A DNA stretch of 64,000 nt, taken from assembly GCA_046565505.1 (NCBI GenBank), contig JBKHYJ010000042.1:67770-131769 (forward strand), in the 5' to 3' direction. The DNA comes from Blastocatellia bacterium (GTDB taxonomy: Bacteria > Acidobacteriota > Blastocatellia > UBA7656). Shown here piece after piece: positions 6,913 through 26,308 of this stretch. The position numbers were made by a program, and so were the translations under genes. The first letter of the stretch is position 1. Each line of letters begins with the position of its first letter. The notes under the pieces were generated by a model, which did no database searches, was not told the origin of the DNA, and saw nothing but the letters and a program-made list of their open reading frames with translations.

Positions 6913-7191
6913 ATGGTTGGGTTAAATCTTCTTGCCCGACTATTGAGCCTGCTTTCCGTAAGCAAGAAAGCTGACGGGCGAAACGGGAGCAGCTTAATCA
7001 CGGTAAAGGCGAATGTCAATGCATCCCGCCCGCGCGGAATGAATTGTACGCGGCGTTTATAACTTCAAACCTGCCTGGCGCGGCGTATCCACGCCGTCGT
7101 TCGCTGATTCAAATCGGGTTCTCGAACAACTTCATACTCACCCGGCCCGAATCCGCGGCTATTCATCTACGCGGTTGGCTAACGTCCGTGC

Positions 7192-8139: not shown

Positions 8140-8710
8140 ATTCTCTCCATTAAGTAGAGGGCCATCTAACGTCTCACACGCCAGGGCACGCAACGCGACA
8201 GCGAATTGCCGATATGAGACTTGCTTTTCGCGCCCAGGTCCACGTGATTGTCGGGCCAGGTGCCGTCATGCGTGCGACCGCGCCGCTGGCGCGTGAGTCG
8301 CCGCCATAAGAATCAGCCGGCCTCGACCTCGCCGAACCTGCTCATTGTATATCAACGCAGGCTCTGCATCACGCCGATGCCGCGCGGCCGCGCCCGGGGC
8401 GACGGCACTCCATGCAGCCGCCCGCCTGCGCGCTTTCATCACCGCATCACGCGCGGCGTCTAACCCCACATTGCATATCCCGGCTCCCATGTCGCGCGGC
8501 CTTCCCTCTCGCCCGAGGTCGGCCCTATTCAGTCCGCCCGGGCCTGTAGATACGGCGATTCAAACATCCACGGGCGCAAGCAGGCGAGTAGAGAGAACTT
8601 GAGTAATGCAGACAATCAAATTATACTGTCGGCCAGTAGAGGCTTCCGAAATTCATTATCGCCCGCTTCGGCCCTTTCACGGTTCGTCGAGAGATCGGAG
8701 GGAACACAGT

Positions 8711-10578: not shown

Positions 10579-11415
10579 TCAATCGGTCGCGGCGTAGTGG
10601 TGAAGGAATGAATAGAACTCTTCTCTCGCGTCAACCATGAGCCAGTGAGAGGCGCCCGGGAATGACTTGCTCTCCAGGCCCATGCGATCCAAGAAGCGGG
10701 CGGTTTCTGGCGAAAGGCTCTCCGTGCCGTAACAGAAGACCTTCGGAATTCTAAGAGAGCAATACGTCCCGCCGATCTCGCTTTGGTATTCCCCTTCGAC
10801 AGATGTGTTCCTGTCATACAGCTCCCTAGCATTAGCCAGAAACGCGTCCTGACGCGCGAAGTGCAGGGACGCATAATACCTCCGGCAAGACTCGTAGCGG
10901 CTGCCCAGCTCGGCGTATACCTTTCGTTCCATGAAGTCGGACTCGAACCACTGCTTGAACTCGCCGCGGCCGGCCGCTTCCACCGCCCGGCCGGAAATAA
11001 AAAGGTCGAATTGCGTTACGTCGCCCTCAACGTTTACGAACTTGCTCACCTTGCCGCGGCGGTCGGAATTACAGAACAGGGTTGCGATGTCTCCGCCCAG
11101 CGAGTGGCCCACGACGATCAGCCTTTCGATTCCTATTCGCTCGCGCGATTCGAGTTTCTCAATCAGACTCCACAGCCTTTCAGTGTGCGCGGCGAAACTA
11201 TAATCCGTCGAAGCGGAGCTTCTGCCATAGCCCGCGAGGTCCGGGACCAGGATATTAAACCGCCCGAGTCTTTTATCCTCGAATGCCTCCTGGAAGGTAT
11301 TTCCCGAATCGCCCAGACCGTGTACGAACAACAGCGTCGGCCTGCCAGCGAGCAGCGGGCTATGTCTTAGAAATAAGTGGTCGTCAAGAATCTTGATGAA
11401 CGATTCGCGCATCAT
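10579..11415 (-). CDS. alpha/beta-hydrolase fold protein (cluster-flanking; possible esterase or editing thioesterase)
   Basis: Oxyanion-region HGLGDSG and nucleophile elbow GHSLGG. 278 aa. Confidence 0.75.
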   Translation of the reverse strand: MMRESFIKILDDHLFLRHSPLLAGRPTLLFVHGLGDSGNTFQEAFEDKRLGRFNILVPDLAGYGRSSASTDYSFAAHTERLWSLIEKLESRERIGIERLIVVGHSLGGDIATLFCNSDRRGKVSKFVNVEGDVTQFDLFISGRAVEAAGRGEFKQWFESDFMERKVYAELGSRYESCRRYYASLHFARQDAFLANARELYDRNTSVEGEYQSEIGGTYCSLRIPKVFCYGTESLSPETARFLDRMGLESKSFPGASHWLMVDAREEFYSFLHHYAATD

Positions 11416-11560
11416 TATATTTTACCGTAGGCGTCGCCGTCGGATCGAACGCATGCGCCGAGTGGGTGTCGGTCCCATGAAATAACGTCGCGCGGTGGGC
11501 CGGCGGCGTGCGAGATTTTATTGTTCGCCCGGGCGGCGCCCCGCCGGAGGTATATCAAAC

Positions 11561-12595
11561 ATGTTAATTAGTCATGAAGGCGATGAAGGCGTTGACACAC
11601 CTTCGCGAGCGGGGGTCAGGATCGGCAACCTCGGGGCGGGCGGGGCCATTCCGCTGGCGTTAGAGCCGGAAACCGACGACGCCGACCTGGTGTCCTGGGC
11701 GAGGAGTAATGCACAGTTCATAGAATCGCTTCTGCTACGGCATGGCGCCCTGCTTTTCCGCAATTTCAATATTGACTCACTGTCCGTTTTCAAAGAATTC
11801 GCGGAGTCCACGTCGGCGGCGCTGATGCCATACAGCGAGCCCTCGACGCCGCGCACGGAATTGACCGCCGATGTCTACACGACGACAGAATACCCCGCGA
11901 CGGAGAATATTTCGCTCCACAACGAGATGTCATACTCCCACGTCTGGCCGATGAAGATATGGTTTCATTGTATCAAGCCCGCCGACGCGGGCGGGGAGAC
12001 CTCCATCGGCGACAGCCGGAAAGTCTTTCAACTGCTCAGCCCCGGCATAAGGGAGGCGTTCGCACGCAGAAACGTCATGTACGTACGCAACTATGGCTAT
12101 GGGATGGGGCTCCCGTGGCAGACCGTCTTCCGCACGGCGAGCAAAGAGGTGGTCGAAAGGCATTGTAGCGAGAATGGCATCCGGTGCGAGTGGACCGGCG
12201 GCGGCCGTCTGAGAACGTACCAGGTCCGTCAGGCCGTCGCGAAGCACCCGAAGACCGGAGAGGATGTCTGGTTCAACCAGGCGCACATCCACAACATCAA
12301 GAATTTCTCCCCCTCACTGCGCGAGGCGTTGCTCTCCCTCGTCGAGTCCAAGGATTACCCACTCGACATTAACTGTGTCTACGGGGACGGGGGGGACATA
12401 GAGGCCCCCGTGCTCGAAGAGATTCGCAATGCCTACGAGCGAGTCACTACGACCTTCCCGTGGCAGAGGGGTGACATATTGATGCTCGACAACATGCTCG
12501 TGTCGCATGGGCGGACCGCGTTCTCCGGCCGCCGGAAGATAGCCGTGGCTTTGGGGGAACCCTTCGCCGCGGGCGGCCTTCAACATCAGCCCTGA
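11561..12595 (+). CDS. TauD/TfdA-family Fe(II)/2-oxoglutarate dioxygenase, SyrP-like (putative beta-hydroxylase of an NRPS-bound amino acid)
   Basis: ATG at 11561 with GGAGG upstream. Clavaminate-synthase-like family signature (HNE facial triad region, C-terminal H..R...G). These are frequently trans-acting amino-acid beta-hydroxylases in NRPS clusters. Confidence 0.7.
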   Translation: MLISHEGDEGVDTPSRAGVRIGNLGAGGAIPLALEPETDDADLVSWARSNAQFIESLLLRHGALLFRNFNIDSLSVFKEFAESTSAALMPYSEPSTPRTELTADVYTTTEYPATENISLHNEMSYSHVWPMKIWFHCIKPADAGGETSIGDSRKVFQLLSPGIREAFARRNVMYVRNYGYGMGLPWQTVFRTASKEVVERHCSENGIRCEWTGGGRLRTYQVRQAVAKHPKTGEDVWFNQAHIHNIKNFSPSLREALLSLVESKDYPLDINCVYGDGGDIEAPVLEEIRNAYERVTTTFPWQRGDILMLDNMLVSHGRTAFSGRRKIAVALGEPFAAGGLQHQP

Positions 12596-13740
12596 GCGTC
12601 GGCGTAGTGTAACATCGCCTCGAACGGCGTCATGTTGAAAGACGTTACAAGCCTGGTGATCTTAGACAGGAGGTGCCCTTCGACTTCCCGCACCGTAAGG
12701 TGAGCCAGCTCCTTGTCGAAGGACACGTGGGACCTGGATTTCCTCCAGAACCATTCGAGCCTCGAAGTCAGCGCGCCGCCGAGCGTCAGGACCTGGCCCG
12801 GCACGGAGTAGACGTTCCTGGCCGCGATGCCTTTCATGACGCTGAGGCCCTTGCTCCCCAGGGGCACCGACAGGTTATGCGCCAGGACCAGGACGCTCCC
12901 GGGCGGGATCGCCTTCCAGTTTGAATTCTCTAGCTCCTCCCCGTATGTCGTCGCGATGATCATGCCGCCCCGCTTCAAGCATTCTTCTGTCAGAGCGCCC
13001 ATCTTTGAAGTCAGCTTCTGGACGCCGGGCGGGGGCGCCGAAGTCCCGTCGTCGTACACCAGGTCGCACACGGCGAGGTCCGCGAACCCTCTCGCCGACA
13101 GGTATTTCAATACGTCGCTGCCCAGTGCGCCCGCCGAGCCTATGAGCGTTACAGGCTTGTCCTGGTAGTCGGAAATGCCGAGCATCTCCAGGGCGGTTAT
13201 GATGCCCGTGGCCGCGTAGGAAGATTTCCCGCCGCACCCGCCGGCCTCGCAGCGTATGCCCAGCACGTGAGTCGTGAACCTGGCGAGGATGTCGGCCATG
13301 CCCGCGTACCGGCCGAAATCGGGCGTCAGCTTAACCATGCCGCCATGTTCGTTGAGCAGCCCCCCGAGCCTTTCAAAGATGCCGGAGATGGTCGCGTCGA
13401 AATCGGGGTTGGCCGGGTTCTGGAGGGTCGCGTATATCTTCTCGTCTCTCGGCCTGAGTATACACCGGGCGCCGCCGACCTTGCTCCCCAGGAAGCCCTC
13501 GGGCATCCTGCCGTTATAGGCGGCGAACGTCTCTTGCGTAAGAACTTTATTGATGAGCCTGTTTTTGAACTCGCTCTCTTCGCTCATCAGCCTTGAGACG
13601 ATGCGGACGACGTCCGGCTCGGCCGTGGCCGGCGGGACCATCCGCGTCCCCCCATAGTAATAGTCGAAGCCTTCCTTCTCATCAAAAGCGATCCAGGCGT
13701 CGGCATTAGGGTGCGACACGTTCAGAATCTTAATGCTCAT
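12586..13740 (-). CDS. Glu/Leu/Phe/Val-dehydrogenase-family amino-acid dehydrogenase
   Basis: N-terminal GGTRM and GSKVGG motifs, then a Rossmann region (VTLIGSAGALGSDV...LAVCD). The 3' end overlaps the convergent TauD gene by 10 bp. Confidence 0.6.
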   Translation of the reverse strand: MSIKILNVSHPNADAWIAFDEKEGFDYYYGGTRMVPPATAEPDVVRIVSRLMSEESEFKNRLINKVLTQETFAAYNGRMPEGFLGSKVGGARCILRPRDEKIYATLQNPANPDFDATISGIFERLGGLLNEHGGMVKLTPDFGRYAGMADILARFTTHVLGIRCEAGGCGGKSSYAATGIITALEMLGISDYQDKPVTLIGSAGALGSDVLKYLSARGFADLAVCDLVYDDGTSAPPPGVQKLTSKMGALTEECLKRGGMIIATTYGEELENSNWKAIPPGSVLVLAHNLSVPLGSKGLSVMKGIAARNVYSVPGQVLTLGGALTSRLEWFWRKSRSHVSFDKELAHLTVREVEGHLLSKITRLVTSFNMTPFEAMLHYADAQG

Positions 13741-13957: not shown

Positions 13958-14806
13958 TTAGCCGGGCTTCTCGCCCGCCGCCATTAACAGTATCCTCATA
14001 TAGAAAGGGTCATCCGACGCCATGAACTTCTCTATGGCGGCGCGGTAATCCTCCGCTTCGTCCCGGGACAGCACGCCCGCCTCGACCAGCGGCATAATGC
14101 GGTCGGGGCTGATCTGCGGGTAAAACCATTCCATGCCCATCTCGCCGCTGTGCGCGGCGACGGCCTCAAGGTCTAATTTCTTGAACCCCGCCGAATCGAG
14201 CACGCGCCATAGGCGCCGCCCGGCCAGCGCGGACCTCCCCCGCGATGATTGATACCGCAGAAGCTTTTCCATGAGGGGCCGGGACTCGGCCAGGTGCGGG
14301 TCCGTGATGTGATTAAGAGAAAAATCGGTCTCGGAGATCACCAGTTTTCCGCCGGGCTTGAGCACGCGCAGAATCTCCCTGGCCGCGCCGCGCATGTCCT
14401 CCAGGTGGACGAAGATTAAACGCGCGAAAGCGAAATCGAAAGTGTCATCCGGGATGCCCATGCCCATCACGGACCCATTCAGAATGCGATACGGGCACCG
14501 CGCCTTGCCTTCCAGATACCGCTCCGCGTGCCGGATCAAAACGGGGTCTATCTCGACGCCGGTGATGGAGCCATTGGGGACCATTTCGGAAAGCCATTCC
14601 GTCACGAACCCGGGGCCGCTCGCGACTTCCAGGACGGACATCCCATCCGTCAACCCGAACCGGCTCAGGACGCGCTTCTCTTTCGCCTTGCTGCCATTGG
14701 CCTGGTTGTATAGACGGCGTAGCTCGTCTTCCAGGGAAACGTTTGCGGTTGTCGCGTCGTACAGCCTTGCCTTTTCCATGCGCGTCCTTTCGGCGAGCGG
14801 GGCCAA
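13958..14806 (-). CDS. class I SAM-dependent methyltransferase (paralogue 1)
   Basis: Motif I LEVASGPGFVTEWL, post-I acidic residue, motif II/III. Clear paralogue of the 24082-24900 gene. Confidence 0.85.
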   Translation of the reverse strand: MAPLAERTRMEKARLYDATTANVSLEDELRRLYNQANGSKAKEKRVLSRFGLTDGMSVLEVASGPGFVTEWLSEMVPNGSITGVEIDPVLIRHAERYLEGKARCPYRILNGSVMGMGIPDDTFDFAFARLIFVHLEDMRGAAREILRVLKPGGKLVISETDFSLNHITDPHLAESRPLMEKLLRYQSSRGRSALAGRRLWRVLDSAGFKKLDLEAVAAHSGEMGMEWFYPQISPDRIMPLVEAGVLSRDEAEDYRAAIEKFMASDDPFYMRILLMAAGEKPG

Positions 14807-14827: not shown

Positions 14828-17800
14828 TCAGATCAGATCATGCAGCTCCGGCCCCGGCAGGTCGTTTGCGTTCTTGATGACGCCGAGTTGTATTTGAAGG
14901 CGCTCGGCAAGCGCGCTGCAATGCGGCGGCCGGAGTATCGTAAAGTGATTGCCGCCGATTGTCTCCTCATGGACCGTACCCCTGGTGTATTTGCCCCAGT
15001 CCGTGCGAGGCAGACCGGCCCGCGCCTTCTCGCCGGCCCACCACACATGCAGGCTCGTTTGAATCACCGGCGCGTTGTGCGCCCGCAGCAACCTGTCATG
15101 TATTTCGGCCAGGGCGACCTGTTGGCGGATGACTTCCGCTGACAGGTCGGCGGGGAGCAAGTTGCGCCGCTGCCCCCAGCCGATGACCCTCTCTATTCGC
15201 TCTTCGGGCGACAGCGGCAGGAGTTCATCGCGAAAGGCTTGCTGAGCCCGCGCGTCGAGGGCGTTGAAGGCGTCCGTGAGCGCGCCGCCGAACGTGAGGC
15301 TGATCCCGAGCAACGGGTCGCTATCAAAAGTGAAAGGGTCGTCCTCGAACAGGTAAGAGTCTACGAGCCCGACGAAGGCCACGTCCTCGTTCTGTCGTTC
15401 CAGCTCGCGGGCGACGCTGACGGCGATCACCCCGCCCATCGACCAGCCGAGCAGATAATATGGGCCGTGGGGCTGCTGCTCTCGGATGACGCCGGCGTAA
15501 TCTGCGGCCATCTGCTCAAGGCTCTCGTGCTCACGCTCAAGGCCCGACAGCCCGCGCGACTGTAACCCGAAGACTGCCTGCCCGGGGTCATGCGAATCCG
15601 CCAGATGCTGGTACAACATCACCTGCCCGCCCGCGCCATGTATGCAGAATAATGGCGGCCACGTCCCGCCGGACCGGATGGGCACGAGGACCGAAAAGGC
15701 CGCCCCGGCGTCTTTCCCCGCTATGAGCGCCGCAAGCTCGGCCACCGTCGGGGCGCGAAACAGCGACGTTAGAAGCAGCTCCGCGCCGAGCCTCTGCCGA
15801 ACTTTCAACAGTAGCTGGATCGCTAGAAGCGAATGGCCCCCGAGCTTGAAGAAGTTGTCGTGTATGCCCACCCGGTCCAGGCCGAGCGTGTCCGCCCAGA
15901 TTCCCGCAAGCTCTTCTTCGACCGCGTCGCGAGGTGCGGCGTAGGATTGTCTCAGCTCCGGCCTGCTCTGGTCCGGCGGCGGGAGGGCGCGTTTATCGAC
16001 TTTCTTGTTCGGCGTGAGGGGCATCGCGTCGAGCGTCACGAACGCCGAAGGGATCATGTAATCGGGCAGCATCTCTTCGAGGTGATCGCGCAGCTCACTA
16101 ACGTCGATGGGCCGCTCGCCCGGCACCACGTAAGCGACCAGCCGCTTGTCGCCGGGCGAGTCTTCCCGCGCGATTGCTACCGCCTCGCGGACGGAGGGGT
16201 GCCGGCTCAGCGCGGACTCGATCTCCCCGAGCTCAATCCTGAACCCGCGTATTTTCACCTGGTGGTCTACGCGGCCGATGAACTCTATATTCCCATCCGG
16301 CATGTGACGCGTAAGGTCGCCGGTCTTATACATGCGGGCGCCTTGTTCGGGGCTGAACGGGTCCGGGATATACTTTTCGGCCGTCGCGTCGGGGCGCCCC
16401 AGGTACCCCCTGGCGGGGCTCGCGCCGCCGATGTATAACTCGCCGGTCACGCCCACGGGAACGACGTTGAGGCGTCTGTCCAGAATGTAAAGCCGTATGT
16501 TCGCGATCTGCCGCCCGATGGTGGGCCTTGCGGGCGGTATCCGTATCAGGAAGTATGTCGTATCGTCAGTGCATTCGGTCGGGCCATAGAGGTTGTAAAA
16601 ATCCGTCCAGTCGTTGCGGGCCAGGTGGTTCCAGGAAGCTTCGTCCAGGGCCTCGCCGGCGACGAAGACCACCTCCGGGGAAGTCTCCGCGGTCCCGGAT
16701 AGACCCGCCGCGAGCAACAGCTTCATCATTGAGGGCGTGACATCCAAAACGTCCAGCCCATGACGGGCTATGAAAGAAATTATCTCATCCGAATCGAGCC
16801 TCACCTCCTCGGGCAGTATGTACAGCGCGTGCCCGTAGGCCAGTTGCATCAACTGCTTTACGGAGGCGTCGAACGCGAGCGGCGCGTTCATGCTGACTTT
16901 CAGAGGGGCGCGCCTCCCCGCGTATATAGCTTCATGGAAGGCCGCCGCCAGGTTTACGAGCGAGCGGTGCTGCACCATGACCCCTTTGGGCCTGCCCGTA
17001 GACCCGGAGGTGTAGATCACATAAACGAGGTTCTCGGCCGAGGCCGCGTTGGCGGGGTTGTGCGAGCTTTGCCGCGAGATTTCTTGCCGGTCGGCGTCGA
17101 GGCAGATGGCCTTCGTCCTCTCTAATGGCAAGTCCGCCAGCAGCTTTTGCTGCGTCAGAATCGCCAGCGCGCGCGAATCTTCTATCATCAACGACAAGCG
17201 CTCCTTCGGGTAATCAGGGTCGAACGGCACGTACGCCCCTCCCGCCTTCAGGATGCCTAGAAGCGTCACCATCATGTCCACGGAGCGCTCCATGTAGATC
17301 CCGACGAGCGTCTCCGGCCCCACCCCGCGCGCCCTGAGGTAATGGGCCAACTGGTTAGCCCTGTCATTCAACTCGCGGTAGGTCAACCGCTGTCGCCGGA
17401 AGACGACCGCCGCCGCGTCAGGGGTCCGCTCGACCTGGTCCTCAAACAATTGATGGAAGCATACGTCGCGCGCGACCGGCAGCTCTATGCTGTTCCACTC
17501 CACCAGTATCTGGCGGCGTTCGGCTTCCCCGAGCAGCGGCAGGGCTGAAATACGCCGGGCGGGGTCCGCCGCCAAGCCCTCCAGCAGCGTTCGCAAGTGG
17601 CCCGCCATTCGGTCGATGGTGGCTTCGTCTAATATGTCGGCGTTATACAAGAAGAGCAGGCTCAGGCCGCCATCGGGGGACTCTTCTTTCGCCGTCTCCC
17701 AAACAGAGAGGCTCAGGTCGAACCGCGTAATCTCCCAATCTAGGTCGAGCACGTCAAGGGTGAGGTCGCCCATCCTGAGCGTAGGCAGCGGGATGTTCTG

Positions 17801-18991
17801 CACGCTGAGCGTCACCTGGAAGAGCGGGTTTCTGCCCGGGTCGCGGCCGGGCTGAAGCTCCTGTACCAACTTTTCAAATGGTAGGTCCTGGTGCGCGAAT
17901 CCGTCCAGTGACACCTTGCGAACCCGCCCGAGCAGCTCGCGGAAGCTCGGGTCGCCCGACAGGTCGCATCGCATCGCCAGAATATTCGCGAAGAACCCTA
18001 TCACCGTTTCCAGCTCCGGTCTGTTCCGGTTCGCGACAGGGACTCCCGTAATGATGTCCTCCTGGTCCGAGTAGCGACACAGCACGACATTGAAGGCGGC
18101 CAGCATTAGCATGAAGAGGGTCGCATTCTCTTGCCGCTGCAAATCGTTGAGCGCGTCGGCGAGCGGCCGCCCCAGCCTGAACAACCGGCGCTTGCCGCCG
18201 TAGGGCCGGGCGGACGTGCGGGGCCGGTCTGTCGGCAGCTCCAGCACGGGCAGCGCCCCGCCCAGCTGGTTGTTCCAATAGTCGAGATGCGCCGCCAGCA
18301 CCTCGCCTTGCAGCCATTCGCGCTGCCACACCGCGTAGTCTTTATATTGAATAGCGGGCTCCGGCAGCGTAGGGATCCGGCCAGCCGAGTACGCTTCGTA
18401 GTGGCTTATCAACTCTTCCACGATCAGTTTCAGGGACCACCTGTCGGAAATTATGTGGTGTTTCGTGAGCAAGAAAATGTAATCCTCTTCGCCCAGCCTA
18501 AGCAGCAGGGGTCGGAAAAGGGGGAGCCTCCCGAGGTCGAACGGCTTCCTCCCCTCCTCGACCGTCAGGCTTTGCGCCCTGGCCTCGCGCTCGGCTTCGG
18601 GTACGCCGCGCAGGTCGAACATGGGGATGGTCACGGTCAGGGAAGGGGCTATCACCTGGACGGGATTATCGCCCTCCATCGCGAAGGTGGTGCGCCAGCT
18701 CTCGTGTCTTTTCACAATCTCGTTCAGGCTGCGCTTAAGGGCTTCAACGTCGAGCCGCCCTTTAATGCGCGCCGCCGCGGGCGCTATATATTTCGAGCTG
18801 CCCGGCTCAAGCCTGTCGTGAATCCAGAGGCTCTGCTGCGAGAACGAAAGCGGGAACGGGCCGGGGCCTGTCTCCCTGCGGATGATCGCCCGCCCTTCGG
18901 GTTGGGCCGCCTTTTTTTCTTTGAGTCTTTTGAGAAAGAGATCGCGCTTATCCGGGGGAAGCGCCATTATCTGGGAAAGAACGTCGCTCAT
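14828..18991 (-). CDS. non-ribosomal peptide synthetase, terminating module (C-A-T-TE)
   Basis: C domain with HHIISDRWS. A-domain core motifs (YTSGSTGRPKG, NLYGPTE, YKTGDL, GRVDHQVKIRGFRIELGEIE, NKKVDKRAL). PCP FFKLGGHSLLA. TE with GWSMGG. AAGAAGG RBS. Confidence 0.97.
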   Translation of the reverse strand: MSDVLSQIMALPPDKRDLFLKRLKEKKAAQPEGRAIIRRETGPGPFPLSFSQQSLWIHDRLEPGSSKYIAPAAARIKGRLDVEALKRSLNEIVKRHESWRTTFAMEGDNPVQVIAPSLTVTIPMFDLRGVPEAEREARAQSLTVEEGRKPFDLGRLPLFRPLLLRLGEEDYIFLLTKHHIISDRWSLKLIVEELISHYEAYSAGRIPTLPEPAIQYKDYAVWQREWLQGEVLAAHLDYWNNQLGGALPVLELPTDRPRTSARPYGGKRRLFRLGRPLADALNDLQRQENATLFMLMLAAFNVVLCRYSDQEDIITGVPVANRNRPELETVIGFFANILAMRCDLSGDPSFRELLGRVRKVSLDGFAHQDLPFEKLVQELQPGRDPGRNPLFQVTLSVQNIPLPTLRMGDLTLDVLDLDWEITRFDLSLSVWETAKEESPDGGLSLLFLYNADILDEATIDRMAGHLRTLLEGLAADPARRISALPLLGEAERRQILVEWNSIELPVARDVCFHQLFEDQVERTPDAAAVVFRRQRLTYRELNDRANQLAHYLRARGVGPETLVGIYMERSVDMMVTLLGILKAGGAYVPFDPDYPKERLSLMIEDSRALAILTQQKLLADLPLERTKAICLDADRQEISRQSSHNPANAASAENLVYVIYTSGSTGRPKGVMVQHRSLVNLAAAFHEAIYAGRRAPLKVSMNAPLAFDASVKQLMQLAYGHALYILPEEVRLDSDEIISFIARHGLDVLDVTPSMMKLLLAAGLSGTAETSPEVVFVAGEALDEASWNHLARNDWTDFYNLYGPTECTDDTTYFLIRIPPARPTIGRQIANIRLYILDRRLNVVPVGVTGELYIGGASPARGYLGRPDATAEKYIPDPFSPEQGARMYKTGDLTRHMPDGNIEFIGRVDHQVKIRGFRIELGEIESALSRHPSVREAVAIAREDSPGDKRLVAYVVPGERPIDVSELRDHLEEMLPDYMIPSAFVTLDAMPLTPNKKVDKRALPPPDQSRPELRQSYAAPRDAVEEELAGIWADTLGLDRVGIHDNFFKLGGHSLLAIQLLLKVRQRLGAELLLTSLFRAPTVAELAALIAGKDAGAAFSVLVPIRSGGTWPPLFCIHGAGGQVMLYQHLADSHDPGQAVFGLQSRGLSGLEREHESLEQMAADYAGVIREQQPHGPYYLLGWSMGGVIAVSVARELERQNEDVAFVGLVDSYLFEDDPFTFDSDPLLGISLTFGGALTDAFNALDARAQQAFRDELLPLSPEERIERVIGWGQRRNLLPADLSAEVIRQQVALAEIHDRLLRAHNAPVIQTSLHVWWAGEKARAGLPRTDWGKYTRGTVHEETIGGNHFTILRPPHCSALAERLQIQLGVIKNANDLPGPELHDLI
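14882..15694 (-). other. thioesterase (TE) release domain of terminal NRPS
   Basis: GWSMGG nucleophile elbow and C-terminal His region. Approximate boundaries from residue counting. Confidence 0.8.
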
Positions 18992-19090
18992 TGTTGCCTT
19001 CTTTCAGTAAAGAATCAGTATCGTTTGTGACTGTGTTTCCCGCCGCCCATCTTTCATAAACCTGACTGACCGCCGCCCGGAGTCTGAGCC

Positions 19091-19834
19091 TCAACCCTCA
19101 AATGAGAGGACCGCGCCGGGCGACTCCTTTGACGCGAAACGGACCGGCCCGACAGAGGCCCCGGCGTCGGAAAGCAGCCCGCGCAGTTCCGCCAGCGCGC
19201 GAGAGACCGAATCGACCTGCGCGGCGGCGACGCCCTCGCTGAAGAAAGCGGCGAAGTCTGTTTCGCGTTCGAGGCAAGTCTTTCTCGAATCGCGGTAGTT
19301 GAAGCCATAACAGATCACCTCCGCGCCGCAGGCGTAAACCACCACGCCCGGCGAAAGCGGCATGTCTTCAACTCGCCCCGAGAGGGGAACGAAGTGGTCG
19401 GACTCAGGTTTGGCAAACCGCACAACTACTTTTGGTTCGGGCAGCCGGGCCAAATCGTAGCCGCCCATCGCCGCGAGGTGCATGGCGGAAATGGCGCAGT
19501 AAGCGTCCACGACCGGCAGTGGGGTGGATATGACATCGCCTTTGAGCAGCCGCCGCGCGAGTTGCTCGGGGCTGCTCTTGTAGGTCGAAGGCTTCAGCCC
19601 CATGCCGCGGAAAGCGTCGCGCCAGGCGGCGACCCTCGGCTCGTCGGAGAGATTCTGGACGCAAAGCCCCAGGTCAATCAGCCCGGCCCGCGCGCGCCGC
19701 ATCAGGTCTGCCGGGCAGGCATTCAGCGCCTTCAACCCGCCGACCAGAAACCCTCCCACCGCGACCTCCGGGAACTTTTTGACCACGCCCTGCTCGACCT
19801 CAAGCTCAAGCGCAGGTTTCATATAGAGCATCAC
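19091..19834 (-). CDS. B3/4-domain protein (phenylalanyl-tRNA synthetase beta-subunit editing-domain homologue), stand-alone
   Basis: AAWRDAFRGMGLKPSTYKSSPEQLARRLLKG and PVVDAYCAISAMHLAAMGGYDLARL resemble the stand-alone B3/4 family (PF03483). Confidence 0.6.
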   Translation of the reverse strand: MMLYMKPALELEVEQGVVKKFPEVAVGGFLVGGLKALNACPADLMRRARAGLIDLGLCVQNLSDEPRVAAWRDAFRGMGLKPSTYKSSPEQLARRLLKGDVISTPLPVVDAYCAISAMHLAAMGGYDLARLPEPKVVVRFAKPESDHFVPLSGRVEDMPLSPGVVVYACGAEVICYGFNYRDSRKTCLERETDFAAFFSEGVAAAQVDSVSRALAELRGLLSDAGASVGPVRFASKESPGAVLSFEG

Positions 19835-19994
19835 TCAAAAACCGGATGATTCTATGAAAGATACTGGGGCAAACGAACCTGGGCAAGCCATAATTATTAC
19901 CACCGTCCGCGGCGCCGGAATGACGCGCGGCCGCGCAGGACGAGGGTGCGCCTCCCGCAGTCGGAAGCGCCCCCGCAGGCGGCCCGGCGTGTGG

Positions 19995-20963
19995 TCATAT
20001 CACCGCGCTGAACATCTTTTCTTCCGTGTCTTCCTCCTCGCCCCTCCAGGGCCTGTTCAGATTCTGCCGGCGCAAATTATGAAAGAATTCTCGGTAAAAC
20101 GCCCAGTAGGAGGATTCGAGGTTTTTGATCCGCGACGCGACGTGCCCGTGCAGCTCAGGGAACTTGTCGTTCGGCACGCCGGGCAGCCAGTGGTGCTCAA
20201 CGTGGTAGTTATTGCCATCCGTGAACCAGACGGCGAACTTTCCCGCCTTGATCGTGCGCGTGTTTTCCAGGACGTTAGTCGTGTGCGTCTTGCAGCCTAT
20301 GTGTTCCGGCAGTTCGATCAGGGCGTGTGTCGGCACCCCGATCAGGAACGGGACGAGCCACAGCTTCAGGAATATCGGCGTCTGGAACGCTATCGTGATG
20401 GCGGCCATCACGATGACAAAAACGGCCATCAACTGATACTCGAACCGAATCTTCTTGGCCGCCTTCAGCGTGGCTTCTTTTTCCCGGACGAGCTTCCCCG
20501 CCATAGATCTGATCATGTACCCGGCAACGTCGCGGTAGTGGCGCACCATCCATAGGTGCGGGATCAGCGCCCACAACGATGACAGCTTCTGATAGCTGTA
20601 ATTGAAGAACTCTTTATCTTCCGGCGTGCCGAGCAGCCTGTGATGTTTGAAGTGACTGTTCTGGTAATCTGAGAAGGACACGAATAGCGGCAGCCCCATC
20701 ATGACCCCCACCGCGCGGTTCCTCCCCTTCCCCTGGTAGGCCGTGTAATGAAGGCACTGATGCTGAAGCTCTACGGCATGCGCGTAAGCCAGGCCGAGCA
20801 AGATCGACGGCACCACCCAGAGCGGGCCCGGGGCCAGTAGCGTGAGGGCGATCAAGGCCGCCGTCGCCAACACCAGGACCAATACCTTTTGTTGAAATTT
20901 GTAACTTCTTACCTGCGCAAGCTCGTGCAGATTTATACCGACAATCTCTTGTCCGACTATCAT
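19995..20963 (-). CDS. membrane fatty-acid desaturase family protein
   Basis: Three His boxes (HQCLH, HFKHHRLLG, HVEHHWLPG). About 4 TM segments. Start set at the ATG with AAAGGAGG 9 nt upstream; the track start at 21074 is an upstream alternative. Confidence 0.85.
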   Translation of the reverse strand: MIVGQEIVGINLHELAQVRSYKFQQKVLVLVLATAALIALTLLAPGPLWVVPSILLGLAYAHAVELQHQCLHYTAYQGKGRNRAVGVMMGLPLFVSFSDYQNSHFKHHRLLGTPEDKEFFNYSYQKLSSLWALIPHLWMVRHYRDVAGYMIRSMAGKLVREKEATLKAAKKIRFEYQLMAVFVIVMAAITIAFQTPIFLKLWLVPFLIGVPTHALIELPEHIGCKTHTTNVLENTRTIKAGKFAVWFTDGNNYHVEHHWLPGVPNDKFPELHGHVASRIKNLESSYWAFYREFFHNLRRQNLNRPWRGEEEDTEEKMFSAVI

Positions 20964-21268
20964 AACTGCATTCCTCCTTTCTAATCCTCGGCTGTAATCA
21001 CTGAATTCCGTGAGTAAGTCCCGGGCAGCGGTGTGCCGCCGCGTCACGCGAGCATGCGGGCGCCCACTGCTCAAGATTGTTGGCCTGTTAGGTGGTTCGG
21101 ACGGATGGTCCCGGCTTTACTGTGACCGAAGAAAGCGGTCCGGCATTCAGGCGGCTCGGTCAAGCCGCCCGAAGCATCATGGCATGGACATGTAAGCTGG
21201 TTTCTCTACGCGGTTGTGGCGGCAAAGCAATCTTCGCCGCCCTGTTACTTTCACGGGGGCGCCGACCC

Positions 21269-23722
21269 CTACTCGGCGCGGAGCGCCGCCAGCGGGTTCA
21301 CCCTCATCGCCCTGCGGGCCGGGAGGTAGCTCGCCAGCAGCCCGACGCAGATCAGTAACACGGAGGTGAGGACGAAAGTAGGTATGTCGATAGCGTTGAC
21401 CCTGAAGAGCAGGCTCGCTATAAGGCTTGTCGACGCGGCCGCGCCGATCAGACCTACCACCACGCCCATGATTAGAAGAGTTAACGTTTGTCTAACGATC
21501 AGCCCCAGGACATGCGCCGGCTGTGCGCCGAGCGCCATGCGTATGCCTATCTCCTGCGTGCGCTGCGTGACGGCGTAAGAGATGACCGCGTAGATCCCCG
21601 TCGCCGCCAGCAGCAACGCGACGGCGGCGAAGGCCCCGACCAGTAGCAGGTTGAACCGCCTCGGCGCGATCGAGGCTGAGATCAACTGCTCCATCGTCCT
21701 ATGACTCGAAGCGGGGACCGTCGCGTCCACGCTGTGGACCTCCTGCCGCACCGCGCCCGCCATAGCCAGGGGTTCGGAATTGGTGCGCACCATAAGGCTC
21801 ATGGTGTTAATGAGCCAGCCGACGGCGTCGTCGGGAATCTGGTGGAACGGAACGTAGATGTCGGGCGATGGCTCTTCGTCCAGCCTGATGTGTTTCACAT
21901 TCCCCACTACCCCGACTACCTCCACGTCCCTCAACTCGGGGCCGTCGTCTATCATCAGGTGCGCCCCGATGGCGTTCTCCGAGGGCCAGTAGGTGTTGGC
22001 GAGCGCCTCGCTTATGACGGCGACGGGCTGCGAGCGCGGCGTGTCCTGTGTGCTGAAGTCACGGCCCCTTAAAATAGGGATCCCCATTGTTGTGAAGTAG
22101 TCCGGGCTCACCATGCGCGCCTGCGCGGATGGCCTCTCGGAGGCCGAAACGGGCGGCCGCCCGACGACGACGTAATCCACGCGGGCGATCAACCCGCTGA
22201 GCGGGAGGATCGAGGCCGCGCCGACCGACTTGACGCCGGGCAGGCTCTGTATGCGCGGCGCGATCTTGTCATAAAAATTCACGACCGAGGCGCGGTCTGA
22301 ATACCTCGTCTTGGGCAAAGACAGGCTGACGACCAGCAGGTTCTCGGCGTTAAAGCCGGGGTCGACTTGCTGGAGCCGCGTGAAGCTCTTCACGAATAAC
22401 CCGGCGCTGATCAGAAGCATCAGCGAAAGGCCCACCTCGGAGATAACCAGGAAGCCGCGGGTGCGACTGCGGCCGTTGCCCCCCGTCGTCCCGCGCGAGC
22501 CCGCCTTGAGGTCTTCGCTCAAGTTGGCCTTCGACCCGACGAGCGCGGGCGCCAGCCCGAAGATAATGCCTACTAGGACTGAAAGCCCCAGCGTGAACCC
22601 GAGCACACGCCAGTCAGTGTCCACCTCGCTTGCGCGCGGGAGGTCCGCGGGCGTGAGCGACATCAACAGGCCGCGGCCCAGATGCGCAAGGAATAGCCCG
22701 AGCATGCCCCCCAACACCGCGAGCAGCACGCTCTCTGTGAGCAGTTGCCGGATCAGGCGGCCCCTGGAAGCTCCCAGCGCCATTCGTATGGCGATCTCTT
22801 TAGTGCGCGCGGAGGACCGGGCGAGCAGCAGGTTCCCTATATTCGCGCAGGCGATGAGCAACACCAGGCCGACTGCGCCCATTATCATCAGCAACGCCGA
22901 CTGGTAGTCGCCCACGATGTGGTCGCGCAGGGACACGAGCGTGACGGAGGTCTTTCGCGCGTTGGTCTTGGGGTACTGCTCTTGCAGATTACGCGCGATT
23001 GAAGTCAAGTCGGCCTGCGCCTGCTGCTGCGTGACGCCGGGCTTCAGGCGTGCAATCGCCCTGAGGAAGTTGGAGTCGCGCTCGGTGCGCCTGGGGTCTA
23101 CTTCCAGCCTTATGGGTATCGCCAGCTCGGCCCTGGTCCCAGGAAAAACAAAATTAGGAGGCAGGACGCCGACGACGGTGTAGCTCTCGTCATTCAGGGT
23201 GAGGGTCCGGCCGACCAGGCCGGGGTCGCCCCCGAAACGTCGCTTCCACAGGCCGTGCGTCACGACCACGACCGGCGCGCTTCCGGCGTTGTCGTCTTCG
23301 GGTATCAAGGCGCGGCCCGCCACTGCCTCGACGCCCAGCATCCGAAAGACGTTGGCGGAGATTCTTAGCCCCTGTATGCGCTCCGAGTCCCCGCCGCCCG
23401 TGAGGTTGGCGCTCCAGTCGGAGAAGGCAGACATGTGTTCGAGGGTCTGGTTTTGATCCCTCTCATCCAAGAAGTCCGGCACTGAGAATGGCGCCTTGTC
23501 ACGGTCCGTCCGCGTGGACCATACCCACACCAGGCGCTCGGAATCCTTGAAGGGTAACTGGCGGAGCACGATGCTATTGACCATGCTGAAGATGGCCGTG
23601 TTAGCCCCTATGCTAAGGCCCAGGCCTATAAGCGCCGCCACGGTGAACCCGGGCCGCCTGCCCAGCATGCGAAAGCTGAAGCGAACATCCCTCAGAAAAG
23701 TCTCCATTGAATCGCCCTCCAC
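21269..23722 (-). CDS. MacB-like FtsX-domain permease with duplicated permease modules and no ATPase (ADOP family)
   Basis: 817 aa. N-terminal TM + large periplasmic domain + FtsX 4-TM unit, repeated twice. Typical ADOP N-terminus (FLRDVRFSFRMLGRRPGFT). Confidence 0.85.
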   Translation of the reverse strand: MEGDSMETFLRDVRFSFRMLGRRPGFTVAALIGLGLSIGANTAIFSMVNSIVLRQLPFKDSERLVWVWSTRTDRDKAPFSVPDFLDERDQNQTLEHMSAFSDWSANLTGGGDSERIQGLRISANVFRMLGVEAVAGRALIPEDDNAGSAPVVVVTHGLWKRRFGGDPGLVGRTLTLNDESYTVVGVLPPNFVFPGTRAELAIPIRLEVDPRRTERDSNFLRAIARLKPGVTQQQAQADLTSIARNLQEQYPKTNARKTSVTLVSLRDHIVGDYQSALLMIMGAVGLVLLIACANIGNLLLARSSARTKEIAIRMALGASRGRLIRQLLTESVLLAVLGGMLGLFLAHLGRGLLMSLTPADLPRASEVDTDWRVLGFTLGLSVLVGIIFGLAPALVGSKANLSEDLKAGSRGTTGGNGRSRTRGFLVISEVGLSLMLLISAGLFVKSFTRLQQVDPGFNAENLLVVSLSLPKTRYSDRASVVNFYDKIAPRIQSLPGVKSVGAASILPLSGLIARVDYVVVGRPPVSASERPSAQARMVSPDYFTTMGIPILRGRDFSTQDTPRSQPVAVISEALANTYWPSENAIGAHLMIDDGPELRDVEVVGVVGNVKHIRLDEEPSPDIYVPFHQIPDDAVGWLINTMSLMVRTNSEPLAMAGAVRQEVHSVDATVPASSHRTMEQLISASIAPRRFNLLLVGAFAAVALLLAATGIYAVISYAVTQRTQEIGIRMALGAQPAHVLGLIVRQTLTLLIMGVVVGLIGAAASTSLIASLLFRVNAIDIPTFVLTSVLLICVGLLASYLPARRAMRVNPLAALRAE

Positions 23723-24081: not shown

Positions 24082-24900
24082 CTAGGGCTTTTCGCCGCAT
24101 GCCATAAGCAGCAGCCTGATGACAAACCTGTCCTCGGAGGCGAGGAGTTTGTCGGAGGCCGCGCGGAGGGTTTCGTACTCTTCTTCTGTTATTACGCCCG
24201 CATCAACGAGGGGCAACGCGCGTTGGGGGTTGATCTGCGGGTAAAACCCTTCGATGCCTTTGTCGCCGCTGTGCGTCGCCACGATTTCGAGGTCTATGTT
24301 TTTAAACCCGGCTTTGCTCAGTATCCGCCAGAGCTCGCGGCCTATCATCGTATTCCCGCCGAGCGAGGTCTGGTACTGCCTGAGCTTCTCGCGGACGGGC
24401 TGGATCTCGGGGAAATAAGGGTCGGTCATGAGGTTGAAGGCGAAGTCGCCTTCGGTCAGCACAAGCCTGCCGCCCGGCTTGAGCAGGCGTTTGATCTCAT
24501 TTAACGCCTCGACGCGGTCGGGTATGTGCTCGAAGACGAGCCGGCCGAAAGCGAAATCGAAGCTCTCGTCCGGGAGGTCCGTCTTATTTATTGACGCTTC
24601 GACGAAGCGGTACTTGCACTGCGCCGCCCGCTCTAAATGCTGCTCGGCGTATTTAATCATGACCGGGTCAAGCTCGACGCAGGTGATCGAGCCGTTCGGG
24701 ATCAGCTTGGAAACCCATTCCGTGACGAATCCCGGCCCGCTCCCCACCTCCAGGACGGACATGCCATCCCGCAGGCCGAACGCCAACAGGTTGCGCCCTT
24801 CTTTCTCCACGTTCAGGTTAGCCTGGTAGTAAAGGCGCTCGATCTCCGCGTCCAGGCTGACATTCGCCGTGCTAACGTCGTACACTTTCGGTTGAGCCAT
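24082..24900 (-). CDS. class I SAM-dependent methyltransferase (paralogue 2)
   Basis: LEVGSGPGFVTEWV motif I. Roughly 55-60% identical across its length to the 13958-14806 product. Confidence 0.85.
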   Translation of the reverse strand: MAQPKVYDVSTANVSLDAEIERLYYQANLNVEKEGRNLLAFGLRDGMSVLEVGSGPGFVTEWVSKLIPNGSITCVELDPVMIKYAEQHLERAAQCKYRFVEASINKTDLPDESFDFAFGRLVFEHIPDRVEALNEIKRLLKPGGRLVLTEGDFAFNLMTDPYFPEIQPVREKLRQYQTSLGGNTMIGRELWRILSKAGFKNIDLEIVATHSGDKGIEGFYPQINPQRALPLVDAGVITEEEYETLRAASDKLLASEDRFVIRLLLMACGEKP

Positions 24901-24994: not shown

Positions 24995-26308
24995 CTAAAG
25001 AGCCTCGGACTCGGACTCGGCCGCCGCCGGCCCGCTTGTGAATGGCTCATCAGGCTTGCGGACGTTCGCCGAGGTGAATAGCCCCGCCGTGGCGAGCAGA
25101 ATGCACATCAGGCCCGTGGCGACCAGCACCGCCGACGCGCCGGCCCGCTCGGCGACCATAGAGGCGGCCGCCGTGCCGAGCGGGCCTATCACCGTGAGTA
25201 TCATCCAGAAGGCGGAAGTTACGCGCCCGAGCAGGCGGTCCGGCGTGACCTGCTGGCGCAAAGACATAGAGCTGACGTTCCTCACAGTGATGCCGAAGCT
25301 GTAGCACGCAGAGAGCGCCGCCAGGGCCGCCACGTTAGGCGCGAGGCCGATTGCGGCGATGGCCGCGCCCATCAAAATATTGCTGCCCAGAAAAGACCAG
25401 CCGAACCCTTTCCTGCGGCGCAGCGCCGGCGCGAGTACGCCCGCCAGTATCGCACCTACGCTGGCGATGCCGAAGATGATCCCGACCGTGTCGTCGTTTC
25501 GGCCCATGTCATGCTTCAGGCGGAATATGACCAGATTCATCGTCGCGCCTGAGATGAAAGAAAAGATGGCGAGCAGCACCGTGACCGACCTCAGCACGCG
25601 GTGGGTGAACACGAAGCGGACCCCTGCGAGGATGTTATCTATCTTCGAGCGGCCCGAATCGGTGGATTGCTCCGCGGGCTCGGGGTCGGCCTTGCGCAGC
25701 CTGACCATCAGCATAAAAATCGCGGAGGCCCCATACGACAGTGCGACCGTTATGACCGCATTGGTGGCGCTGAAGTGTCTGGAGGCAAGGCCGGCCAGCA
25801 TGGGGCCCGCCACGTAGGCGACGGCGACCGTGGCCTGCAACCGGCCATTGGCCTCGGTTATCTGTTCTTTATTGACCACGCCGGGTATTACCGACGTGTA
25901 CGCGATGAAGAAAAATGTCGTCAGGTAAGCGGTTATGGTCGCGACGACGTAAATGGCCATCAGGCTCGGGCCGAGCAGCCACCAGATGAGCGGTATGGCG
26001 AGGTAAAATAACATCCTGCCCAGGTCCGAGAGAATCATTACCTTTCGCCGATCCACCCTGTCTACCACGACCCCGCTTACCATGCTCGAAATCAGGTTGC
26101 CCGCGCCGATGGCCGCCGTGACCAGCCCCATCTGCGCAACCGACCCCGTCGCCTCAAGCACCAGCAACGGGATCACGATCAGGGCGGCCGAATCGCCGAG
26201 GGCGTCAAAGGTCTGCCCCACCCAGAAGGTGTTGAAATTACGGTCGCGCCACAGCCCGCGGCCGGGCGAAGCAGCGGCCGCCACGCCGAGCGGTGTTGTA
26301 TTACTCAT
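24995..26308 (-). CDS. MFS transporter (EntS-like / DHA-type exporter)
   Basis: 12 predicted TM helices, MFS motif region G..VDR.DRRKVM. Start overlaps the upstream carrier-protein gene by 8 nt. Confidence 0.85.
   Translation of the reverse strand: MSNTTPLGVAAAASPGRGLWRDRNFNTFWVGQTFDALGDSAALIVIPLLVLEATGSVAQMGLVTAAIGAGNLISSMVSGVVVDRVDRRKVMILSDLGRMLFYLAIPLIWWLLGPSLMAIYVVATITAYLTTFFFIAYTSVIPGVVNKEQITEANGRLQATVAVAYVAGPMLAGLASRHFSATNAVITVALSYGASAIFMLMVRLRKADPEPAEQSTDSGRSKIDNILAGVRFVFTHRVLRSVTVLLAIFSFISGATMNLVIFRLKHDMGRNDDTVGIIFGIASVGAILAGVLAPALRRRKGFGWSFLGSNILMGAAIAAIGLAPNVAALAALSACYSFGITVRNVSSMSLRQQVTPDRLLGRVTSAFWMILTVIGPLGTAAASMVAERAGASAVLVATGLMCILLATAGLFTSANVRKPDEPFTSGPAAAESESEAL

Follow-up and report, generated by a model that had tools for sequence, protein, structure and literature searches.

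A CtdA-like stand-alone B3/4 protein encoded in a lipopeptide NRPS cluster of a Blastocatellia bacterium, and the coupling of its family to membrane oxygenases and basic-amino-acid decarboxylases

In PheT the B3/4 domain is one of several, B1, B2 and B5 among the others, in a subunit of around 800 aa. The B3/4 domains so far characterised all attack the ester at the 3'-terminal ribose of tRNA (PMC12449066), and CtdA, which stands alone, is an experimentally proven canavanyl-tRNA(Arg) deacylase (PMC10018355, PMC12449066) that is unable to replace PheRS editing (PMC12449066) and whose gene immediately precedes an operon for canavanine degradation (PMC10018355). Deacylases encoded in biosynthetic gene clusters (BGCs) are also described, FthB of the INS family and BesG of the AlaX family guarding their producers from their own amino acids, and AlaX-type deacylases are found beside NRPS/PKS genes as well (PMC13149037). 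An earlier note on the DNA considered here, made from its sequence alone, had described a free-standing B3/4 gene inside an NRPS operon and knew of no characterised example in NRPS pathways. For the B3/4 family this stands, no B3/4-family deacylase in a biosynthetic cluster being found in the searchable literature, but the CtdA family is characterised and FthB and BesG are themselves embedded in BGCs (PMC10018355, PMC12449066, PMC13149037).

The gene in question lies at 19091-19834 on the minus strand of the window (the whole stretch of 64,000 nucleotides that was analysed), its ORF filling that interval exactly from a GTG start, with in-frame ATGs at 19831 and 19822 equally plausible. The 247-aa product matches Pfam B3_4 (PF03483) at 52.9 bits (E 4.3e-14), above the gathering score of 29.3, and PF03483 is present in all its listed homologues. 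This is its sole Pfam domain, and so both the B3/4 identity and the free-standing architecture proposed in the earlier note are borne out. The PheT architecture is absent, the Pfam Thioesterase family (alpha/beta-hydrolase fold) gives no match and an NCBIfam search assigns no family; three family members bear the JGI label "lysyl-tRNA synthetase class 2", which carries no weight as evidence here. The AlphaFold2 model is confident (pLDDT 95.9, pTM 0.92), and Foldseek returns with it CtdA and 20+ PheRS beta chains at probability 1.00, the best structural matches being to CtdA (9F7E/9MKL) over the full length at TM 0.66-0.76 and the PheRS beta-subunit editing domains ranking after these at TM ~0.56. 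Searches of PDB sequences match only the CtdA structures, 9F7E and 9MKL being found with the single sequence (E 6e-10) and with the family profile (E ~1e-15), and that profile detects no PheRS chain in the PDB at E <= 0.01. On sequence and model together the closest characterised relative is CtdA, and not PheRS. Two metagenomic contigs from relatives keep the gene in the same order, at 93% and 88% identity, and its dN/dS of 0.18-0.28 indicates purifying selection. Domain, fold, family relationship and conservation can be taken as established.

Likeness to CtdA extends to the general build, both proteins standing alone at ~230-250 aa with the B3/4 fold and aligning over the whole chain, including the helical insert specific to the CtdA family, and sharing the KP...S.E.L..R motif, V..Y, G116, C166, N..R and E191. 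Identity is however only 21-22%. With the B3/4 domain of PheRS beta the window protein has in common the fold and the Pfam family, but it lies outside any synthetase and its insert is of the CtdA and not the PheRS type. Across 56 family members K81-P82, S88, E90, L92, R95, V109 and Y112 are invariant and common to CtdA, as are G124 (CtdA G116), C175 (C166), N179, R181 and E200. In CtdA N105 is essential, the N105A variant being inactive; PheRS tolerates N254A. The CtdA pocket set (N105, G116, E118, C166, Q173 and I189 in S. enterica numbering; PMC12449066) is only partly kept, G116 and C166 being retained and the other four replaced. Q173 to D182 and E118 to Y126 are invariant, family-specific changes, I189 becomes F198 in the window protein, and N105 becomes C113 there, with C in 34 members, S in 17, N in 4 and T in 1. 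Judged from these residues the N105-equivalent stays small and polar, yet the active site departs from that of CtdA. Were the same chemistry applied to a different amino acid, a kept core with a remodelled side-chain pocket is what one would expect to see, and the invariant Asp (D182) would suit a cationic side chain.

The cluster around the gene is a lipopeptide NRPS cluster. An FA_desaturase-family gene precedes the B3/4 gene by 160 nt and a C-A-T-TE NRPS follows it after 99 nt, all three on the minus strand within a same-strand run of biosynthetic and transport genes, and so the placement between desaturase and terminal NRPS given in the earlier note agrees with the ORF and Pfam maps. The 160 nt spacer from the oxygenase (19835-19994, minus) holds no Rfam element and no terminator; no convincing terminator or promoter is seen in either gap flanking the B3/4 gene, an Rfam scan of 18800-21400 gives no match, no relevant RNA element lies upstream of the oxygenase-B3/4 pair in seven related loci, and no tRNA gene is near the B3/4 gene in the window. 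The terminal NRPS module (14828-18991, minus) has an A-domain code of DAKDLGLDDK or DAKDFALDDK, depending on the alignment. Upstream of the oxygenase is an ADOP-family duplicated MacB/FtsX permease (21269-23722, minus; TIGR03434 at 1017.7 bits, above cutoff), a candidate exporter, and the order permease-oxygenase-B3/4 recurs in three related loci (L001, L002 and L049). Then come a SAM-dependent methyltransferase (24082-24900, minus), an MFS transporter (24995-26308, minus) and an NRPS of 4813 aa (26740-41181, minus; domains taken from a 4815-aa orthologue), which begins with a fatty-acyl-AMP-ligase-type domain and has three amino-acid modules with the codes DIESVATIC-, DLTKVGHVGK and DVWHVSLVDK, a methyltransferase being inserted in the A domain of the first of these. 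On the other side are a second SAM-dependent methyltransferase (13958-14806, minus), a 384-aa protein (12586-13740, minus) that is 99% conserved in L001 and has no Pfam, NCBIfam or PDB match, and a TauD/clavaminate-synthase-like Fe(II)/2-oxoglutarate oxygenase (11495-12595, plus; Pfam TauD 160 bits), for which weak NCBIfam matches are clavaminate synthase and GntD and the PDB matches are uncharacterised CAS-like proteins only. An alpha/beta hydrolase (10579-11415, minus) stands at the cluster edge.

The neighbouring gene (19995-21074, minus; Pfam FA_desaturase 122 bits) encodes a GntB-like, FA_desaturase-fold membrane di-iron oxygenase whose true start is probably near 20960, because orthologues in relatives are called at 322 aa. 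GntB is a transmembrane enzyme hydroxylating free L-arginine to gamma-hydroxyarginine (PMC10367076), and is the only FA_desaturase-fold membrane oxygenase found in the literature with a free amino acid as substrate. It is like the window oxygenase in fold, in being transmembrane and in its three His boxes (HQCLH, HFKHH and HVEHH in the window), and the GntB L-arginine gamma-hydroxylase family is the best NCBIfam match of the window enzyme at 59.7 bits, true desaturases scoring 21-23 bits, though this misses the NF041365 (GntB) equivalog cutoff of 380 bits. GntB is likewise the top-scoring match for 10/10 partner oxygenases tested, at 26-101 bits against the same cutoff, which makes them distant relatives and not orthologues. 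A PDB sequence search with the window oxygenase gives no match. In PMC12371840 and PMC10367076, which are published descriptions and not the gnt cluster sequence, no B3/4 gene is mentioned alongside the gnt genes.

Across the family, 49 loci were evaluable, with NRPS genes scored within ~10 kb and oxygenase partners counted by HMM search, tblastn alone having under-detected them. An NRPS is nearby in only six of the 49, and a carrier protein is absent near most, so that the family does lie largely outside such clusters, an outcome that the earlier note had named as counting against its reading. The locations are nonetheless not random, since an FA_desaturase-fold gene is immediately upstream on the same strand in 32/49, often with an overlap of 4-8 nt, and over ~0.75 Mb of flanks each FA_desaturase ORF found was one adjoining a B3/4 gene. 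No oxygenase is nearby in 14 of the 49. The partner oxygenases comprise at least two lineages with a mutual identity of only 16-21%. Decarboxylases of basic amino acids are recurrent neighbours of the pair and belong to two unrelated folds, with an enzyme of fold I, LdcC/ODC-like, in 14 Acidimicrobiia loci and one of fold III, LysA-like, in L009, L040 and L069 as well as in 27/80 loci seeded with the oxygenase. In L027 and L039 the B3/4 gene is beside a decarboxylase only, without an oxygenase. The B3/4 family is thus not NRPS-specific but is coupled to FA_desaturase-fold oxygenases and basic-amino-acid decarboxylases, and this genetic coupling too is established. Fusions of B3/4 are to ankyrin repeats only, one adjacent ankyrin gene also being seen, and none to a synthetase, oxygenase or decarboxylase was found. 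Like CtdA, then, the family has a genetic link to enzymes metabolising a (here putative) non-proteinogenic basic amino acid. Unlike CtdA, it has no canavanine-degradation genes and no guanidine-I riboswitch around it, its partners being FA_desaturase-fold oxygenases and Lys/Orn/Arg-type decarboxylases, with some members in NRPS clusters.

The reading that we prefer, and to which we would give about an even chance of being correct, is that the B3/4 protein is a trans-editing aminoacyl-tRNA deacylase shielding protein synthesis against a non-canonical, Lys- or Arg-like amino acid that the cluster produces. A cluster enzyme would make the free analogue, most plausibly an oxidised Lys- or Arg-type one, with the GntB-like membrane oxygenase next door as its likeliest maker. 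Now and then the analogue would be charged to tRNA by a host aminoacyl-tRNA synthetase, and hydrolysis of the analogue-tRNA ester by the B3/4 protein would forestall incorporation into protein, while the NRPS could still draw on the analogue for its product. We infer here which amino acid is concerned, that tRNA is the substrate and that the oxygenase acts on a free amino acid. The tRNA-deacylation option of the earlier note is in line with CtdA as closest characterised relative. The proposed logic, a trans-editing factor encoded by genes for a non-canonical amino acid, would parallel that of FthB (INS/YbaK) and BesG (AlaX) by way of a third deacylase family, unrelated to theirs in fold. Of the features of those systems the window protein has one, being a free-standing homologue of an aminoacyl-tRNA editing domain. 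A second, neighbours that make a free non-canonical amino acid, is only putative for the GntB-like and TauD-family oxygenases and the methyltransferases of its NRPS cluster, the window-type oxygenase mostly lacking a B3/4 neighbour. An arginine analogue was the first choice, from CtdA and GntB, and has been softened towards a Lys-type one given the LysA-like and LdcC/ODC-like decarboxylases. No A-domain code that might name the amino acid is common to the B3/4-containing NRPS clusters compared (window, L003, L009 and L049). Presence of the B3/4 gene in only a subset of similar clusters is easier to reconcile with an accessory, protective function than with one in core assembly.

That subset is a small one. 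A reverse scan seeded with the window-type oxygenase finds a B3/4 neighbour in 3/80 loci, and in one of the 21 having at least 4 kb on both sides; the usual setting of this lineage is an NRPS cluster that has a LysA-like decarboxylase but lacks a B3/4 gene, and so B3/4 would be an optional accessory in window-type clusters. The window oxygenase as an obligate B3/4 partner is weakened by the same scan. It is the leading, though unproven, candidate source of the non-canonical amino acid, and may instead serve the lipid tail. These counts also bear on a possible but unlikely alternative, that B3/4 works together with the membrane oxygenase and is no quality-control factor of translation, delivering or holding its substrate or hydrolysing some other ester to release the product, whether an aminoacyl-lipid, an aminoacyl-AMP or an aminoacyl-tRNA serving as the oxygenase substrate. 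The 4-8 nt overlaps in many loci suggest stoichiometric co-expression, the ankyrin fusions and the adjacent ankyrin gene point to protein-protein contacts, and the change of the CtdA catalytic Asn to Cys or Ser brings in potential nucleophiles. Such a partnership sits poorly with the 14 loci that keep B3/4 without an oxygenase (L027 and L039 having only a decarboxylase beside it), with the window-type oxygenases that in most clusters do without B3/4, with GntB being described without a partner protein (PMC10367076), and with two oxygenase lineages only 16-21% identical both needing the same partner.

Distinctly unlikely, we think, is that a toxic amino acid from the environment is edited off tRNA while the compound is broken down or rendered harmless by the oxygenase, decarboxylase and amine dehydrogenase, the NRPS location being incidental or a secondary recruitment. 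CtdA itself, directly upstream of its canavanine degradation operon (PMC10018355), is a precedent for this, and a quinohemoprotein amine dehydrogenase, typically catabolic, lies between oxygenase and B3/4 in L012 and L078, an amidase adjoins B3/4 in L049, and many oxygenase-B3/4 pairs stand alone without biosynthetic context. Yet in the window, L001, L002, L003, L009, L049 and L069 the B3/4 gene is inside or beside NRPS clusters, LysA-like decarboxylases build amino acids and do not destroy them, and neither an uptake transporter nor a catabolic regulator accompanies the pair with any consistency. Type II thioesterases have the alpha/beta-hydrolase fold and act on phosphopantetheine thioesters; the window gene resembles theirs as that of an accessory hydrolase within an assembly-line cluster, but differs in the B3/4 fold of its product and in a family mostly away from NRPS genes. 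The NRPS-tailored carrier proofreading raised in the earlier note, in which B3/4 would replace such a thioesterase by hydrolysing mis-loaded aminoacyl- or acyl-thioesters on the NRPS carriers, could draw on the B3/4 gene immediately preceding the terminal NRPS module among genes of one strand, and on there being no stand-alone type II thioesterase among the annotated cluster genes, the alpha/beta hydrolase at 10579-11415 apart. It has not been upheld and seems most improbable, given the low co-occurrence with NRPS and carrier genes, a BGC family that mostly runs without the B3/4 gene, and the targeting of the tRNA 3'-ribose ester by every characterised B3/4 domain (PMC12449066).

Were the deacylase reading correct, the recently established rule by which tRNA deacylases signal the making of non-canonical amino acids would widen from INS and AlaX to B3/4, the CtdA-like family would be tied to FA_desaturase-fold membrane oxygenases, and the window lipopeptide would be predicted to contain a free amino-acid analogue that translation could take up, or to be synthesised by way of one. 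A stand-alone B3/4 gene adjoining an FA_desaturase-fold gene could then serve as a mining rule leading to loci in poorly studied soil phyla, and the co-expressed pair should yield a new amino acid and its cognate editing enzyme. More tentatively, the pair may be a widespread and previously unrecognised two-gene module in which the di-iron oxygenase makes an antimetabolite amino acid (hydroxylated or desaturated, of Lys, Arg or DAP type) and the CtdA-like deacylase gives immunity, sometimes plugged into NRPS lipopeptide pathways; in a more radical version the oxygenase would work on the tRNA-bound amino acid and B3/4 would release the product. With such a module the tRNA deacylases linked to biosynthesis would number three families, and B3/4 genes would flag a new class of amino-acid chemistry in genome mining. 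The oxygenase-B3/4 pair is found in soil Acidobacteriota, Acidimicrobiia, Planctomycetota, Myxococcota and Proteobacteria.

The minus-strand interval 19091-19834 is filled exactly by one ORF of 247 aa, whose sole domain is Pfam B3_4 (52.9 bits, E 4.3e-14, against a gathering score of 29.3) and for which NCBIfam gave no model. The AlphaFold2 model, made from an alignment with 49 homologues, is confident (pLDDT 95.9, pTM 0.92), and the top two Foldseek matches in the PDB are CtdA structures, 9F7E and 9MKL (TM 0.66-0.76 over 243-247 aligned columns, 21-22% identity), followed by more than 20 PheRS beta subunits at a query-normalised TM of about 0.56. By sequence, CtdA is the only relative with a solved structure (E 6e-10 with the single sequence, about 1e-15 with the family profile), and no PheRS chain was found among solved structures at E <= 0.01. 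The stand-alone B3/4 homologue that the earlier note had placed here in an NRPS cluster is confirmed. The dN/dS of the gene is 0.18-0.28.

CtdA is itself a stand-alone B3/4 protein, which hydrolyses canavanyl-tRNA(Arg) and so protects cells from canavanine, and its gene lies directly upstream of the canavanine-degradation operon (PMC10018355); its structure and pocket residues have been analysed (PMC12449066). With CtdA residues transferred through an HMM alignment to 9MKL (chain numbering being residue number plus 2), G116 and C166 are retained in the family as the invariant G124 and C175, as are the KP...S.E.L..R motif, V109, Y112, N179, R181 and E200. In contrast, the essential N105 is Cys113 in the window protein (34 C, 17 S, 4 N and 1 T among 56 family members), E118 is replaced by Tyr126 in nearly all members and the side-chain-facing Q173 by Asp182 in all, and I189 is Phe198 in the window protein. 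Because core residues are retained while four pocket residues differ, the family is, judged by sequence, a subfamily of its own, in which the catalytic scaffold is conserved and the side-chain pocket is lined differently. It is large: 1313 clusters of the 50%-identity representative library match at E <= 1e-3, and 117 still do at E <= 1e-30, with a length of about 240 aa in nearly every case. Two members in that library, P0253 and P0260 (549 and 434 aa), are fusions to ankyrin repeats, and at locus L012 the B3/4 gene is followed directly by one for a 206-aa ankyrin protein (10796-11416); together these suggest a protein-protein contact of B3/4.

The window gene is separated by 160 nt from an FA_desaturase-family gene upstream (19995-21074) and by 99 nt from a C-A-T-TE NRPS downstream (14828-18991), in a minus-strand run with a 4813-aa NRPS opening with a fatty-acyl-AMP-ligase-type domain (26740-41181), an ADOP/MacB-type permease (21269-23722), an MFS transporter and two methyltransferases; a TauD-family oxygenase lies on the opposite strand. 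Neither gap flanking the B3/4 gene holds a convincing terminator or promoter, no Rfam elements were found around it, and the window has no tRNA genes. The same cluster recurs in the same gene order in two metagenomic contigs, whose B3/4 proteins are 93% and 88% identical to that of the window; the closest relatives in genomes are from Pyrinomonadaceae and Blastocatellia. Among the cluster genes compared between the window and locus L001, B3/4 is the least conserved (93%), the oxygenase, NRPS, permease, methyltransferase, TauD enzyme and a 384-aa protein being 94-99% identical. This last protein (12586-13740, minus strand), inside the cluster and of no assigned family, finds no match in Pfam, NCBIfam or the PDB sequences and is 99% identical in L001, and so is a conserved, unclassified cluster gene. 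Duplicated permeases of the MacB/FtsX kind are seen at 21269-23722 and 46558-49242, and possibly also at 53186-56122 and 59240-61753; one of the window's permeases scores 1017.7 bits against TIGR03434 (ADOP family), and these permeases indicate that the window comes from an acidobacteriotal genome.

Exact-protein look-up, together with a scan that took a single genome for each species and yielded 40 loci, gave 49 evaluable distinct B3/4 places, window included, across Acidobacteriota, Acidimicrobiia, Planctomycetota, Myxococcota, Krumholzibacteriia, Verrucomicrobiota and Proteobacteria. The NRPS setting that the earlier note described for the window gene does not extend across them, NRPS genes flanking only six (window, L001, L002, L003, L009, L049); the coupling is instead to FA_desaturase-fold oxygenases. 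Since tblastn under-detects divergent oxygenases an HMM was built and used, and it places such an ORF immediately upstream on the same strand at 32 of the 49 loci (30 of 47 with the window and two close relatives counted once) and within 4 kb at 35, with a 4- or 8-nt overlap in many pairs. The flanking DNA, about 0.75 Mb in all, yielded no FA_desaturase-family ORF other than those adjoining B3/4, and therefore chance is no explanation; the partners belong to two or more lineages, mutually only 16-21% identical, which argues for functional coupling over inherited synteny. Fourteen loci lack an oxygenase. At an aroDE/his-operon locus of Thermoanaerobaculia and Holophagales some genomes have oxygenase and B3/4 and others B3/4 alone (comparison sets L013, L017, L022 versus L011, L015, L016, L042, L054), suggesting that the oxygenase was lost and B3/4 retained.

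For all ten partner oxygenases tested, the window's included, the best curated match is NCBIfam NF041365 (GntB), always ahead of true desaturases (26-101 versus 21-29 bits) and far below the equivalog cutoff of 380 bits. GntB is the guanitoxin L-arginine gamma-hydroxylase, a transmembrane enzyme acting on free arginine (PMC10367076). Fourteen Acidimicrobiia loci have the order fold-I Orn/Lys/Arg decarboxylase, 154-aa protein, oxygenase, B3/4; the decarboxylase adjoins B3/4 with the oxygenase absent at L027 and L039, and a fold-III decarboxylase accompanies the oxygenase at L009 and L040. The fold-I enzymes best match lysine decarboxylase LdcC, ornithine decarboxylases being a close second, and those of fold III resemble LysA (219-233 bits, just below the 297.9 cutoff). 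Also found nearby are a quinohemoprotein amine dehydrogenase (L012), an amidase (L049), a CmlA-type beta-hydroxylase (L009, L069) and EamA or ADOP exporters, and the common theme is basic-amino-acid metabolism, not lipid metabolism. The 154-aa protein (L034:8353-8817, with homologues in 9 loci) is conserved and has no Pfam match. In the Blastocatellia genome of L012 the dehydrogenase alpha and gamma subunits, and likely beta, lie between oxygenase and B3/4 (6728-9977); at L078 the two genes have the same spacing, about 3.3 kb. Three B3/4-only proteins of 241-242 aa (P0050, P0087, P0090) carry the JGI name 'lysyl-tRNA synthetase class 2', probably an annotation artefact, if a curious one given the Lys-type decarboxylases beside the family.

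A metagenome scan seeded instead with the window's oxygenase lineage gave 80 loci (L055-L134), of which only L069, L078 and L105 have a B3/4 gene, at L105 abutting a second oxygenase that differs from the first; where both flanks extend 4 kb or more (21 loci), a single locus has one. These oxygenases recur in NRPS clusters, either NRPS-flanked or in the order permease, oxygenase, LysA-like decarboxylase, FAAL-NRPS, and the decarboxylase is found at 27 of the 80 loci. No LysA-like decarboxylase is encoded in the window, where B3/4 occupies the slot directly after the oxygenase that the decarboxylase takes elsewhere. B3/4 is thus an optional accessory of this BGC family, and the window oxygenase is not its obligate partner, whereas other oxygenase lineages are tightly coupled to it. 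The pairing of this oxygenase with the LysA-like diaminopimelate-decarboxylase paralogue inside FAAL-NRPS lipopeptide clusters (L074, L069, L009 and L040 among them) may make an unusual lysine-type building block.

The best-supported reading, with about an even chance of being right, is that B3/4 would be a trans-editing aminoacyl-tRNA deacylase by which the producer guards itself against a non-canonical amino acid formed free in the cluster, most probably an oxidised analogue of Lys or Arg type. It draws on the kinship with CtdA, a conserved core whose pocket is re-specified (Asp182), the oxygenase/decarboxylase coupling, the accessory distribution across clusters, the precedents of FthB and BesG, and the AlaX genes that lie beside NRPS/PKS (PMC13149037). 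We infer that the substrate is tRNA, as well as which tRNA and amino acid are involved and that a free amino acid is what the oxygenase acts on. Against it stand the replacement of the Asn that is essential to CtdA, the reverse scan, which weakens the tie to the oxygenase of the window itself, the loci without an oxygenase and the low GntB scores.

Translational coupling and the ankyrin fusions could instead reflect a protein partnership, B3/4 being a working partner of the oxygenase, or else a hydrolase of another ester, which we hold possible though doubtful. The CtdA parallel would also fit deacylation of the same kind aimed at a toxin from the environment, for which the neighbouring genes would form a catabolic pathway, and this we consider unlikely. 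Proofreading of carrier-protein intermediates, which the earlier note offered as one option, is poorly supported and very improbable, most family members having no NRPS or carrier protein nearby.

Stand-alone B3/4 deacylases and BGC-encoded deacylases are already known. What appears new is that a large subfamily of CtdA-like proteins has a pocket signature of its own, that it is tightly coupled genetically to GntB-like FA_desaturase-fold oxygenases and basic-amino-acid decarboxylases, and that it is occasionally recruited into NRPS lipopeptide clusters, none of which was found described in the literature searched. Co-expression of the two genes could expose both a new amino acid and its editing enzyme.

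A-domain codes were read by alignment to a GrsA PheA fragment, the published DAWTIAAICK being reproduced as a control, and no code is common to the different B3/4-containing NRPS clusters. Modules 1 to 3 give DIESVATIC-, DLTKVGHVGK and DVWHVSLVDK, and the terminal module DAKDLGLDDK or DAKDFALDDK depending on the alignment; these presumably resemble Lys (DAESIGSVCK), Asp, Ser and Glu (DAKDLGVVDK) codes. The first A domain (core near 37227 in the 26740-41181 NRPS), whose code is unusual, is interrupted between its A8 region and A10 lysine by an inserted methyltransferase-like segment. If module 1 is Lys-like, this would be consistent with a modified lysine carrying the lipid, which is only a lead.
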